Virus record (IMG/VR): IMGVR_UViG_2563366828_000005
Origin: a virus
Lineage: Duplodnaviria; Heunggongvirae; Uroviricota; Caudoviricetes
DNA length: 40,620 nt
Reading direction: 5' to 3' (one strand)
A program made the translations under genes and the position numbers. Of the stretch, positions 4,674 through 39,345 are shown piece after piece; the first letter of the stretch is position 1, and each line of letters opens with the position of its first letter. The notes beneath the pieces are model-generated. The model worked only from the letters and a program-made list of their open reading frames with translations. It ran no database searches and had not been told where the DNA came from.

Positions 4674-5498
4674 TCAGGCGGTGAAAGTACCAATAAAGGT
4701 TTCTACTTTGCTGTCTTTGAATTTCTCAACAAGCAGATCACGAAATTCGTTAGCCATTTCTTCCTGCACCGCTTCCAGCTGAATAATGCGCAGAACCAGT
4801 ACAGGACGATCGCCAGTGATAATGCTGAGGCGTAATTTAAATGGACGTTCTTTCAGGCCTTCAAACGGAACGCATTTAAATTCAAATGCCACTGGCATAA
4901 TGTCTTTGGTCTTCGCTTCGACAGACTCCATCAGGGAGCGTTTGCCGCTGAAGTCATTATCTTCAAAATCAGCGGTCTGGTTCGCTTCAATTGTGATTTT
5001 ACGGATAGCCGCCGCCGCTTTGGTTGCCTGAATGGCGTCACCATTAGCATCAAAGCCCACAAGGTAGTCGGCCCAGTCTTCAATCCATTCTGCCAGTGAT
5101 TTCTGGGAGTTACGCTCGCCATTAACAGACAACAGAGCAGAGAACGGTGCTGTCTTTTTCAGTTTGAGAGTGGCGGTGTTATCTGCGTGACCTGGTTCAT
5201 CAATAGTACCCAGGTTAAGCACACTGACGGCACGCATATTATCAGCATCGATAAAGCAGCGGGTGCCTTCATCTGCAAGATCTTTAGAATAACGGGTAAA
5301 GTCATCGATGCTGGCAGTGGAAAGCGCACCACGGAAACGGAAGCGATTTAAATTAAATTTTTCCAGATCATGAATGCGGAAATTCTCAGGCAATGCCACA
5401 GCATCGGCACCAATCTTACTGATAATTTCATTAACACCCTGAGCAGAAATAAGGGCATGGATTTGATTAATTGCGGTTGCGTCTAAGTTCTGAGACAT
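4674..5498 (-). CDS. DUF2303 (YfdQ-like) family phage protein
   Basis: 274-aa ORF; size and gene order (120-aa, 274-aa, 178-aa HD, PP-loop protein) resemble the yfdP-yfdT block of E. coli CPS-53 as recalled; not verified. Confidence 0.5.
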
Positions 5499-6394: not shown

Positions 6395-6829
6395 ATGTCC
6401 GGTAATATCTATACGCTGTACAAATCCCACTGTGAAAATGTTGGAAAGTATCGGGGCATTGAAATCAGTGGGGTAGTGTCATCAGTCGAAATAAGCAAAG
6501 TTGAATCAAGGGCAACATTACTTACTCTTCTGGACCTTGTCTTAAATGAGCACCGGAAGAAATTCGGCACACCCTATAATCAGTTGAATGGGAAAAAGGC
6601 TCTGGTTCACCTTATTCTGATGAAGCATCACTGGATGCCAAAACAGATTAATGAGATGAAATTTGATGAACTTCTTCTTTCAATTCAGGATGAACTCACG
6701 CTTGATAAAATAAGTGTAACCGCCCAGAAATTTTTAGATTATCGAGACTGGAGATCACAAATTCATCACTTTGATGATTTTGACGAAAATGAATGGGATC
6801 CTAATTTGTCTGCACAATATCTAAAGTAA
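6395..6829 (+). CDS. Hypothetical 144-aa protein, AT-rich moron on the strand opposite the early-left operon
   Basis: Clean ORF with AAGGA about 10 nt upstream; AT-rich versus flanks; hairpin plus T-run terminator downstream on the same strand. Confidence 0.55.
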   Translation: MSGNIYTLYKSHCENVGKYRGIEISGVVSSVEISKVESRATLLTLLDLVLNEHRKKFGTPYNQLNGKKALVHLILMKHHWMPKQINEMKFDELLLSIQDELTLDKISVTAQKFLDYRDWRSQIHHFDDFDENEWDPNLSAQYLK

Positions 6830-34595: not shown

Positions 34596-35640
34596 ATTTC
34601 AGCGCCCGACGCTGGCAGAAAATATCAGTATGCTCCGTAACGATTTATTCGCCAGGCTGGACGTCAGCGACACGCTCCGGCGCATGGATGAAGACGTGCG
34701 GGCAAAGGTGTATGCGGCGGCGCTGCATACGGTTTACGGGTACATCGATTATCTGGCAATGAACATGCTGCCTGACCTGTGCGATGAGTCCTGGCTGGCG
34801 CAACATGCTGCGATGAAACGGTGTCCGCGCAAGGGGGCCACGGCTGCCAGCGGGTATATGCGCTGGGAAGGTGTCAGCGATGGCCTGAAGGTGACCGCCG
34901 GAAGTGTTATTCAGCGCGATGACCTGGTTCAGTACACGGCAACTGCCGATGCAACCAGCACCGGTGGTGTCCTGCGCGTGCCGATCGCCTGCTCAAGTGC
35001 AGGCGCGGTCGGTAACGCTGACGACGGTACGTCATTAATCCTGGTCACGCCGGTTAATGGTCTGCCGTCTTCCGGCGAGGCAGATACCCTGACAGGTGGA
35101 TTTGATACTGAAGAGCTGGAAACGTGGCGCGCCCGCGTCATTGAGCGGTATTACTGGACGCCTCAGGGCGGGGCTGACGGGGACTATGTCGTCTGGGCTA
35201 AAGAAGTGCCCGGCATTACCCGCGCATGGACATACCGACACTGGATGGGAACGGGGACTGTCGGTGTGATGATTGCCAGCAGTGACCTGATTAACCCCAT
35301 TCCGGAAGAATCAACGGAAACGGCGGCAAGACAACATATCGAGCCACTGGCCCCGGTGGCAGGCTCTGATTTGTATGTATTCAGGCCGGTGGCGCACAAA
35401 GTGGATTTTCATATCCGCGTGACGCCGGACACACCGGAAATACGGGCTGCCATCACCGCGGAGTTGCGTTCATTCCTGCTGCGTGATGGTTATCCGCAGG
35501 GAGAGCTTAAGGTATCGCGTATCAGTGAAGCGATTTCCGGTGCGAACGGGGAATACAGCCATCAGTTGCTTGCTCCGGCGGACAATATCTCCATTGCAAA
35601 AAATGAACTGGCGGTTCTGGGGACGATTTCATGGACGTGA
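34582..35640 (+). CDS. Baseplate J-like protein (Mu gp47-like)
   Basis: 352-aa ORF in the conserved position. Confidence 0.7.
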
Positions 35641-36215
35641 CAAACGATGATTACATCCGTCTGTTGTCGGCACTGTTGCCCCCTGGTCCGGCGTGGTCAG
35701 CCAGCGATCCGGCGATTGCCGGTGCGGCACAGTCATTAACCCGTGCTCATCAGCGTGCGGATGCCCTGATGCGGGAGCTGGATCCGCGCACCACCACCGA
35801 ACTGATAAACCGCTGGGAGCGTCTGTGCGGCCTGCCGGATGAATGTATTCCGGCAGGGACGCAGACCCTTCGCCAGCGTCAGCAACGGCTGGATGCGAAG
35901 GTTAACCTGGCGGGTGGCATCAATGAGGATTTTTACCTTGCGCAGCTTGCTGCCCTGGGCAGACCAGATGCCACCATCACGCGATACGACAAAAGCACGT
36001 TCACCTGCTCATCGGCCTGTACTGACGCGGTGAATGCGCCGGAATGGCGGTATTACTGGCAGGTCAATATGCCAGCTGCCACCAACACCACCTGGATGAC
36101 ATGTGGCGATCCCTGTGATTCCGCACTGCGTATCTGGGGGGACACCGTTGTCGAGTGCGTGCTTAACAAACTCTGCCCGTCGCATACCTACGTAATTTTT
36201 AAATATCCGGAGTAA
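35631..36215 (+). CDS. Tail protein (Mu gp48/DUF2313-like)
   Basis: 194-aa ORF between baseplate J and the tail fibre gene. Confidence 0.55.
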
Positions 36216-36218
36216 TTC

Positions 36219-37151
36219 ATGCATCGTATAGACACGAAAACCGCGCAGAAGGATAAGTTCGGCGCGGGTAAGAACGGTTTTACCCGTGGTAACCCCCAGA
36301 CCGGCACGCCTGCCACCGATCTGGATGATGACTACTTTGACATGTTGCAGGAGGAGCTTTGCAGCGTGGTGGAGGCATCCGGTGCCAGCCTGGAGAAGGG
36401 GCGGCATGACCAGTTGCTTACAGCGCTTCGTGAGCTGCTGTTAAGCCGCAAGAATCCGTTTGGCGATATCAAATCGGATGGCACGGTGAAAACGGCTCTC
36501 GAAAACCTTGGTTTGGGAGATGGCTCGGGGCGTTACAGCAAAACTGTCGTTTTTTCATCGTCGGGTTCATATACGTGGCCAGCTGACGTAAAACGAATTG
36601 ACGTTATTCTGACTGCGGCGGGCGGCGGTGGCGGTGGATGTAACGCGGAGAACGCAAATCAGACATTTTCAGGGGCTGGCGGAGGAGCCGGAGGTACTGT
36701 TTTTGCCACTATTTATGCGACAGACAACGATGCCGGGCCAGGGACCTATACAGTGACAATTGGTAGCGGTGGTAGTGGTGCCAATGGGCCAGGGTCTGGA
36801 AATAATGGCGGTCATAGTTCGTTCATGACATTAACTGCGCTCGGCGGCCAGGGTGGGCAATGGGGCGGCGCTACAAATACCGCTGGCGGGCTCGGTGGTT
36901 CAGGCTCTGGCGGTTATAAAACTGAACAAGGCGGAGACGGTTCAGACGGACAGGCGGGCCAGGCGCTATTAGTAGGCAATGGGGCATCGAGCTATTGGGG
37001 TGGCGGCGGCCGCGCTGGGCAACTGAGCGGTAATTCTGGAGTTTGCTCTGGCTCCGGCGGCGGGGGTGCATACGATAATAGCTATTCACACACGTCAGGA
37101 CGTGGCGGGCACGGAGCTAATGGCGTGCTGGTAATTCGGGAGTACATGTAA
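36219..37151 (+). CDS. Tail fibre protein with conserved N-terminal anchor and glycine-rich C-terminal region
   Basis: 310-aa ORF; N-terminus [47 protein letters not shown] typical of tail fibre N-termini; C-terminal 180 aa dominated by Gly runs. Confidence 0.7.
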
Positions 37152-37556
37152 ATGAATGATGTTTATGCAGTTGTTGATAATAACGTTGTTATTAATGTCA
37201 TTATCTGGGACGGAATTTCTGAATGGAAACCAGAGGCTGGTAATTTAGTTCCGTTAAACGGCGATGCTGGCATCGGTTGGTCATATTCAGACGGAGTATT
37301 TACCGCGCCACCTCCCCCAGAACGCTCTCACAACGCGTTAGTTGCGGAGGCTGAGCTGCAGAAATCAGCACTACTGACCGTAGCAAATAACGCAATAGCA
37401 CCGCTGCAGGATGCCGTTGATTTGGAAATGGCGACAGACGATGAACAGACGTTACTGCTGGCGTGGAAAAAATACAGGGTACTGCTGAACCGTGTTGATA
37501 CCTCAGCGGCACCCGAAATAGAGTGGCCTACGCAACCGGGGGAGCGGGCCAGTTGA
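37152..37556 (+). CDS. tfa: Tail fibre assembly protein (Tfa)
   Basis: 134-aa ORF immediately after the fibre gene; C-terminal [25 protein letters not shown] matches the Tfa C-terminal signature. Confidence 0.75.
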
Positions 37557-37857
37557 TATCAGGCGCAGGGGCAGCATCAACTGCTGTCACTGCGTCGATG
37601 TAGTCGAGTACCGCATTCAGCCGCCTTTTTTCATCATCAGTCAGTTTGCGGCCTACACCTCTCCGTTGACATCTTTGTTATATGGTACAACTGCGCAGAG
37701 GCCTGTCTCTCCAATTGTGCCAGTTGAATACTACGATACAACGCTAGGTCTTCCAATATGGTATAACGGCACAGCTTCATCATGGCAGCGAGCTGATGGA
37801 ACAAATACTTGATTAATTTATGGCGCATCAATATAAAGTATCGATGCGCCATAATAA

Positions 37858-39345
37858 TCACTGACAAATGTTTTTGTCAAAATCAACTACAATAATATCA
37901 TCATATGAGTATAAGTTATATTCATATGCTCTTTTAATCTTTGCGGTTGAGCAAAAGGTTTTTTCATTTAACACACTTGCAATGTTTGTATTCCCAGGGT
38001 GTTTAAAGTAAACTCCAACTCTATTCATATAAGGGAATGGCCAATCCCAATTATAGAAATACTCTGGGAAAAATCTAGATATTAACGGGTAATTATTTCG
38101 TGCGTTTACAAAAACATCATTGTCTTTCTTTTTACCATTAAAAATAAGTATCTGATTTGTTTTTCCGCTTAACTCGAAAGCATCATTTTTAATCTGATGA
38201 AACAGAACTGTGGTTATGTTTTTTTCTTCTGTCATTGCATTTGTGTATGAACATAAAAAACCAAAAACATAAATCAGAGGAATTACAAGTATATATGTTA
38301 TTGGATTTTTTGTTTCTCGCGAGAAAAGATAAACAATCATGAATAAGAACAACATCGTAGCAGAAAAACCGATCATCACTCTTGGGGCGTCGATGTGATG
38401 CTGAAGTGGTAATAGAGTAGCAAAAGACAATATCAAAGCTGTTACTGGTGATGTTATTGTAATTAAAAAATTAATAATACCAGTAATACTTTTATTAGGT
38501 ATTGATTTCTTTAGCGCGATGAATGTCGTCATTGCAATGAAAAATAAAAATATTACTATAAACGCAACTCGTCCTGATTCCCCAAAAATACCACTAGATA
38601 TTGAATGAAGATAAAATTTTAAGTTTTCATATATAACTGAAAAAATGCCTTCAGTTTTAATTGATGGGTGATCCGGGTCCCCAACAACAGTTAAAAATAA
38701 AGGAATAACCACCAAAAAATATAATGCAACACCTATAACTAATGATACCGTCTTTTCTATGAGGTAAGTTAATAGATGTCTGTTACTATCTGAGTTAAAG
38801 TACATGTAAACATATTTACACAGAATAATAACCAGCATGAAATTTAATGATGCTTGGTATATAGACAATATAAATAATGTTAACAGGGCGGCAAAAGAAA
38901 TATTTAAAATTGTCTTTTTGAAATTAAATATTACAACTGAGAATGACAATGCAATACTTATGAACATCGGTAAAACATCAAAGCGATACATTGCATTTTC
39001 AATTAAAAATGGGCTTGATAAAATACCAAGAGGAACCAACAGTCCAATAAATTTATTATCTGTCGATATAAACATCCTGCTAAAAAAATACAGGCAAACA
39101 GATATCAAAAATACTGATAATATTGCAGGAAATGGGAATAAGTCCGTTATGTGCATGTTGAAATTCAATGCAATCATCAACATTTCAGCCAAAGGTCTAC
39201 CATCCCTAGCCCATCCAGTATACCCCCATATAGCTCTTCCCTGATCATCTACATAATGAATATTTGCCATGATGATGGGGGTGAAATATATAAAAACAGA
39301 TATCAAGAACCAATGGAAAGGTGTTTTGTTTTTATTTGCAATCAT
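37858..39345 (-). CDS. gtrC: Serotype-specific O-antigen glucosyltransferase (GtrC-type polytopic membrane protein)
   Basis: 495-aa AT-rich ORF with many hydrophobic segments, third gene after gtrA and gtrB. Confidence 0.6.

Follow-up and report, generated by a model that had tools for sequence, protein, structure and literature searches.

Probable scar of two joined phage modules between tfa and gtrC in an SfIV/SfV-type prophage of Escherichia coli

The locus studied here raises the question of what the DNA between the tail-fibre assembly gene tfa and the glucosyltransferase gene gtrC (37557-37857) is and where it came from. The window, by which we mean the whole stretch of DNA that was analysed (40,620 nucleotides, IMG/VR record IMGVR_UViG_2563366828_000005), ends, according to its list of open reading frames, in the tail genes of an integrated phage, followed by the convergent genes gtrC, gtrB and gtrA (Table 1). 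A preliminary description had taken two frames in this interval, one on each strand, for a decayed alternative fibre and its chaperone, the footprint of a former invertible or swapped host-range cassette. Both translations are indeed present in the sequence, but the two fragments do not form a pair, as the modules from which they derive are unrelated and meet at about 37656/37660. We consider it very probable that the interval is a scar of two joined phage modules, consisting of two non-functional gene ends, and that the gtrC next to it is swapped as a cassette.

The prophage belongs to the serotype-converting phages of the SfIV/SfV type, and its tail end is of the e14 type. The baseplate genes and the N-terminus of its fibre are 96-97% identical to those of Shigella phage SfIV and of the K-12 cryptic prophage e14, and this identity extends only to 36520. 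DNA identical to that of the window is present in 17 of 30 complete E. coli genomes among the matches listed, related DNA occurs in 77 of 5426 complete E. coli genomes, and the prophage adjoins ybhB-bioA in both records examined for location. A megablast of 37100-37900 against phage records gave no match, and a distant search of phage records matched only the portion with tfa and the minus-strand relic (tfa'). When one-genome-per-species contigs were scanned, the junction between tfa' and the plus-strand relic (the stub) had no match, and a pattern back-translated from YYDTTLGLPIW had a single, irrelevant one. The empty junction scan indicates that the tfa'/stub structure is not widespread among species-representative genomes.

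Table 1. Features at the 3' end of the window (coordinates are those of the window)
Feature	Position	Strand	Basis or remark
ymfQ, tail gene upstream of the fibre gene	35631-36215		Open reading frame
Live tail-fibre gene, 310 aa	36219-37151	+	Continuous open reading frame; Pfam Gly_rich_2, E 8.5e-18; phrog_863, E 2.7e-90
Din-family invertase crossover site, e14 pix type, GAAAACCTTGGTTTGGGAGA	36501-36520	+	Identical to the e14 left repeat
tfa, live tail-fibre assembly chaperone, 134 aa	37152-37556	+	Pfam Caudo_TAP, E 1e-32
tfa' relic, last 42 codons and stop of a convergent second chaperone gene	37528-37656	-	N-terminus deleted
Tailspike 3' relic (stub), 51 codons and stop, ending YYDTTLGLPIWYNGTASSWQRADGTNT	37657-37812	+	Part of the linker and D4 of a P22-like tailspike of the CBA120 TSP3 type
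Conserved block of 39 nt coding for YYDTTLGLPIWYN; zone of the left crossover in gtrC exchange	37729-37767	+	Mismatch maps; blastn limits
Stem-loop with 16-nt arms, between the convergent stub and gtrC	37818-37854		Inverted repeat, 94% complementary
gtrC, predicted serotype-specific O-antigen glucosyltransferase, 495 aa, core of the variable cassette	37858-39345	-	Open reading frame; RefSeq "glucosyltransferase domain-containing protein"
gtrB, then gtrA to the window end; conserved right homology arm	39332-40620	-	Open reading frames; annotation

The minus-strand frame had been placed at 37640-37557; it exists, but its limits were drawn too narrowly, as the relic runs from 37656 to its stop codon at 37528-37530. 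The 29 nt at its 3' terminus lie within the end of the live tfa, just as tfaP and tfaE overlap in e14 and gp21 and gp22 in SfIV, and its similarity to a convergent Tfa C-terminus was borne out by a match to Pfam PF02413 (Caudo_TAP; E 4.7e-10; 40.2 bits, with 22.1 as the cut-off), which covers profile positions 95-130 of 131 only. The relic also matches phrog_3792 (E 8e-14) and phrog_188 (E 3e-12). In a tblastn search, e14 TfaE aligned to it with 68% identity over 41 aa (E 1.4e-12), and the last ~45 residues of e14 TfaE and SfIV gp22 are each aligned with 63% identity. Homology to SfIV gp22 and e14 tfaE is lost upstream of the AGRKL motif, at about 37653-37659, beyond which the residues are unrelated; the relic has neither a complete open reading frame with its own start nor the first two-thirds of the Caudo_TAP domain. 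It is a pseudogene fragment comprising the C-terminal third of a convergent Tfa, and it is already annotated in RefSeq, where PGAP labels 37528-37653 as "tail fiber assembly protein, incomplete, missing N-terminus" (partial pseudogene); the live tfa is labelled tail fiber assembly protein in the RefSeq records with identical DNA.

The live fibre gene is composed of an StfP-type constant N-terminus and a variable glycine-rich C-terminal domain. A crossover site, an imperfect palindrome centred on AAACC-TT-GGTTT, lies within its open reading frame, exactly where the homology to e14 and SfIV ends, that is, at the constant/variable junction. The site is the sole copy in the window at up to three mismatches, with none expected by chance. 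The preliminary description had looked to crossover sites and a nearby invertase gene as marks of an invertible cassette. One e14-identical site was thus found, while a second was absent from the window at the same tolerance and no further AAACCNNGGTTT core was found near the tail genes. An invertase gene did not turn up: the best tblastn hit of PinE in the whole window had an E value of 2.9, no serine invertase (pin, gin, cin) was found adjacent, and no homologue of an StfE-like alternative fibre was found in the window. With one fibre and one tfa intact and the second tfa truncated, the locus is not a Din-family invertible segment as it stands.

The closest known arrangement of the switch is the P segment of e14 (stfP-tfaP / tfaE-stfE, with pinE), which is of the same kind as the G segment of Mu (gin) and the C segment of P1 (cin). 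The ymfQ gene and the StfP N-terminus of e14 are 96% identical to those of the window, its left crossover site is identical and sits at the same constant/variable fibre junction, and the 29-nt convergent overlap of tfa and tfa' is found in both. However, the 1.8-kb P segment has 21-nt inverted repeats (4786-4806 and 6604-6624 of the e14 locus, L005) around stfP(v)-tfaP-tfaE-stfE, followed by pinE, whereas the window has one site and 42 codons of tfa', and the variable part of the window fibre, the glycine-rich domain, is unrelated to that of e14. Because of the convergent tfa' geometry and the crossover site at the constant/variable junction, it is well supported that an e14-type switch was probably once present and that the fibre is now locked in one orientation; in this respect, the earlier proposal of a former invertible host-range cassette holds up. 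The module order of SfIV (gp20-gp22, then gtrIV-gtrB-gtrA) is the same as that of the window, namely fibre, tfa, convergent tfa' and convergent gtr operon, and its baseplate region is 96.7% identical. In SfIV, by contrast, tfa' (gp22) is of full length with IS elements after it, a tailspike stub is lacking, and another gtrC is present. The full tfa' of SfIV is found in the absence of an invertase, which shows that a convergent pair of tfa genes can be maintained even where no switch operates; this counts against the loss of a switch in the present locus. No relative with the whole switch (tfa', fibre B and invertase) beside gtr was found, and the ancestral state is therefore drawn from e14 and SfIV only.

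In RefSeq, records whose DNA is identical to that of the window show the fibre gene as two features, a "glycine-rich domain-containing protein" and, before it, an "stfP pseudogene, missing C-terminus". They are divided at the crossover site (36501-36525), and the stfP pseudogene call therefore looks like an annotation artefact of the constant/variable join. As a speculation, the orphan site at 36501-36520 could still be a substrate for a Pin-type invertase acting in trans from another prophage, and large inversions could result if a second site were present elsewhere in the chromosome.

The plus-strand piece is, as had been described, an open frame of 51 codons followed by a stop. No Pfam model matches it. 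It matches phrog_20787 (E 5.9e-12, profile positions 27-65 of 67 only) and residues 584-625 of the CBA120 tailspike 3 chains in the PDB (5w6f, 6nw9; E 5.3e-10), and its motif, GTTAQRP...YYDTTLG.PIW..G..W..A.G, was found by tblastn in tail fibres and tailspikes of many phages. The parent tailspike came from a search of E. coli genomes; the large protein database gave only small open reading frames of the relic itself and small metagenomic proteins. A P22-like prophage of E. coli GF66.2, which contains a DNA transfer protein, Arc-family regulators, an antirepressor, the tailspike, gtrCBA and an integrase, encodes an intact 587-aa tailspike ending in GSTAQRPTAPVSGQMYYDTTLGLPIWYNGTASSWQRADGTNT, followed by an identical stem-loop and the same gtrC. 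This tailspike matches CBA120 TSP3 with an E value of 1e-219, and its final 27 residues are identical to those of the stub in the alignment. From 37729 on, the window is 98.5% identical in DNA to the 3' end of a tailspike gene that is intact and annotated, and 37729-40620 is 99.2% identical to GF66.2. In P22-like prophages, a tailspike of the CBA120 TSP3 type (PDB 5W6F/6NW9) adjoins gtrCBA, and in GF66.2 the stop codon of this gene is also that of the window. The stub corresponds to part of the 23-residue linker and the D4 subdomain, that is, the last ~45 residues of a TSP3-type tailspike; D4 of TSP3 is a sheet of three strands, from which a beta-prism II is built in the trimer (domain limits from PMC6517402). 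Chance similarity was rejected as an explanation for either fragment in view of the E values (4.7e-10 and 1.4e-12 for tfa', 5.9e-12 and 5.3e-10 for the stub).

This origin bears on the reading of the plus-strand piece as the C-terminus of an alternative fibre. In the e14 layout, the alternative fibre lies on the strand of tfa' and upstream of it, so that fibre B would here be on the minus strand, upstream of tfa', but the fragment is on the opposite strand. Moreover, StfE shows no resemblance to the piece, which is near-identical to the end of a P22-like tailspike with the same gtrC beside it. We therefore abandoned its identification as an alternative fibre and regard a common origin of the two fragments, as alternative fibre and chaperone decayed within a single invertible cassette, as very unlikely, even though the tfa' piece fits such a cassette, a crossover site survives, and the plus-strand piece resembles the termini of receptor-binding proteins.

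The head-binding N-terminal domain and the right-handed beta-helix of the tailspike are absent, as upstream of 37657 there are only the antisense of tfa' and tfa, and homology to the GF66.2 tailspike gene begins only at 37729. A stub without these two parts cannot form a tailspike. Moreover, the stub is chimeric: 37657-37734 is common to all sister prophages, and 37746-37812 goes with the present gtrC allele. The 5' half is an allele other than that of the GF66.2 tailspike, and no intact tailspike closely matching it (37657-37728) was found in E. coli complete genomes or phage records.

A rival reading takes the frame for a live small gene of 48-62 aa that encodes a D4-like module on its own, in the manner of the "virion structural protein" family phrog_20787, to which it shows the similarity given above; it is open in most variants and appears as "hypothetical protein" in some GenBank submissions, and free-standing metagenomic proteins of 80-96 aa carry its motif. 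We consider this very improbable. The N-terminal half of phrog_20787, which is seen in these metagenomic proteins (P0005-P0015), is missing from the stub; the frame has no ATG or GTG, and its first and sole possible start, the TTG at 37666, has no Shine-Dalgarno sequence; and PGAP makes no gene call at 37657-37812. Among the sister prophages, the frame is frameshifted in L008, and its conserved W and D are replaced in L007. The 3' half of the stub varies with the gtrC allele, as hitch-hiking DNA would. It is exceedingly unlikely that a +1 frameshift near the end of tfa yields a chaperone with an 85-aa extension ending in the D4-like module: although the stub is read in the tfa frame +1, in which no stop occurs from 37522 onward, and a run of five G lies at about 37538-37542, no recognised +1 slippery motif is present, the stub decays in relatives, and the 45 intervening codons are merely the antisense of tfa'. 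The stub, which is decaying in relatives, is treated here as non-coding. It is unannotated, and no description of it or of the tfa' relic was found in the literature searched.

The metagenomic proteins P0005-P0015 share a terminal GTTAQRP...YFDTTLGLPIWY..W.KADGT motif, and phrog_20787 is annotated as a virion structural protein in Cellulophaga phages. The existence of free-standing proteins with the same motif suggests that the TSP3-D4-like beta-prism module also occurs as a tiny independent protein family.

The reading of the interval as a joined scar beside an exchangeable gtrC is supported by the comparison with other prophages, in which the homologies, their boundaries and the mosaic pattern were observed directly. 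Four SfV-like sister prophages were compared, those of E. coli 042 (L004), L007, L008 and L009; the tfa' relic is present in all of them, as is the first half of the stub. Identity to the window is 97-99.5% as far as 37754-37821 and again from 39322-39342 (the end of gtrB), but between these flanks all four carry a gtrC unrelated to that of the window. In the P22-like prophage L006 as well as in L004, L007, L008 and L009, the gene in the gtrC slot is unrelated to the gtrC of the window while the flanks match, and homology with every compared locus resumes at 39322-39342. The window has the gene order gtrA-gtrB-gtrC of an O-antigen glucosylation cassette, with gtrA and gtrB 94-99% identical across the loci and gtrC unrelated. 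Furthermore, the SfV-like L008 and the P22-like L006 form a second cross-family pair, which shares another gtrC with 98.5% identity from the same starting base as in the pair of GF66.2 and the window. At least four unrelated gtrC genes have been found in the one slot of prophages that are nearly identical elsewhere (37858-39345 of the window, 5216-6691 of L004, 5116-6582 of L006, 4311-5768 of L007 and 4201-5616 of L008).

The breakpoints on the left side can be placed closely. The 39-nt block at 37729-37767 is common to the relics of the SfV-like prophages and the intact tailspikes of the P22-like ones. The blastn match to both P22-like partners starts at 37729, and the tailspike genes of these two (GF66.2 and L006) share 93.5% identity as far as the position that corresponds to 37767, beyond which they diverge. 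In the mismatch maps, the window is of the 042 type through 37734, with 1 difference in 635 nt, and of the GF66.2 type from 37746, with 0 differences to 37900, which places the crossover in the window at 37735-37745. Taken together with the limits of the SfV-like matches (37754-37821), the P22-like block limits indicate that the exchangeable unit comprises the last ~15 tailspike codons, the stem-loop and gtrC, bracketed by 37729-37767 and gtrB. From the homology of the stub and this breakpoint map, the relic marks the left edge of the exchangeable gtrC cassette.

The stem-loop at 37818-37854 is very stable, with a folding energy of -24.4 kcal/mol (z -6.3), and is identical in the GF66.2 prophage. 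It is inherited with the gtrC cassette. A scan for intrinsic terminators does not call it, and a U-tract is lacking on both strands; it may serve as a bidirectional transcript end or as a stabiliser.

The P22-like prophage of E. coli ESC818 (L006) is inserted at bioA-ybhB, the same attachment site as that of the SfV/e14-like prophage (L001/L004), and the two encode an identical GtrA protein. The shared site and the identical GtrA suggest that the P22-like and SfV/e14-like families have had repeated opportunities for recombination. The tailspike gene of L006 is split by an IS3-family element.

On the basis of these comparisons, we infer the following order of events. The ancestor would have had an invertible host-range segment on the plan of the e14 P segment, in which the constant fibre part was followed by a crossover site and by variable fibre A with tfa; convergent to these came tfa' with variable fibre B, and beyond them a second site and an invertase. 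The N-terminus of tfa', fibre B, the right-hand site and the invertase would then have been lost by deletion or illegitimate joining, leaving one crossover site in the locked fibre gene and the 42 codons of tfa' as remnants of the switch. The DNA joined on would be the end of a P22-like late region, with the last ~50 tailspike codons, the stem-loop and the convergent gtrC-gtrB-gtrA operon. The tailspike stub, presumably useless to a myovirus-type phage, matches the tailspike 3' ends of P22-like prophages, some of which lie at bioA-ybhB with shared gtrA and gtrB. The stub and gtrB bracket gtrC, homologous recombination in both arms would swap gtrC alleles, and the window is one such recombinant. 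It is probable that the stub did not just happen to lie at the breakpoint but acted as a homology arm. Breakpoints in a conserved block are, however, expected from homology alone and are no proof of a selected role. We find it unlikely that the stub has been retained as a portable homology arm that, together with gtrB, shuttles gtrC between P22-like podoviruses and SfV/e14-like myoviruses sharing bioA-ybhB and drives the diversification of the O77 group (O17/O44/O73/O106).

Mosaic lambdoid phages carry conserved "linker" sequences at their module boundaries. The arrangement in the window seems analogous, in that a variable module has short conserved stretches on its flanks, which are also where the recombination breakpoints fall. 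Unlike the intergenic linkers of lambdoid phages, one arm in the window is a dead structural-gene fragment from another phage family, and the exchange crosses podovirus-type and myovirus-type prophages. The finding is a case of ordinary phage mosaicism with a cleanly resolved module junction, which leaves the current understanding of mosaicism unchanged. What is mildly novel is the left homology arm for the exchange of gtrC between two prophage families, which is marked, and was probably provided, by a dead tailspike stub. The analysis also accounts for an unannotated 150-base stretch in at least 70 complete E. coli genomes and corrects its misreading as an alternative fibre, documents gene flow between podovirus-type and myovirus-type prophages, and provides an example of a prophage fibre locked in one orientation.

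E. coli O17, O44, O73, O77 and O106 have one common O-antigen gene cluster and backbone, and the differences within this O77 group are glucose side-branches that have been attributed to prophage gtr genes and confirmed for O44 (PMC7685785). An O17 reference strain, named O17_K12a, has the cassette of the window at 98.9%. The gtrC in the slot of E. coli 042, which we take to be an O44 strain, differs from that of the window. We suggest that the gtrC alleles in the slot are candidate determinants of the O17/O44/O73/O106 side-branches and that the compared cassettes probably underlie these variants of the O77 group. Plattner et al. are said to have identified, in 2019, TSP3 as the CBA120 tailspike responsible for O77 infection. 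CBA120 has been reported to infect E. coli O77 (PMC7506556). The location of a TSP3-type tailspike, a relative of one from an O77-infecting phage, beside genes modifying the O77-group backbone is consistent with this. Among the members of the O77 group are ST69 and the strains of recent STEC O77g:H18 outbreaks (PMC7685785, PMC13188871). The boundaries of the gtrC cassette, given here to the base with a left arm at 37729-37767 and a right arm from ~39322, could help in-silico serotyping.
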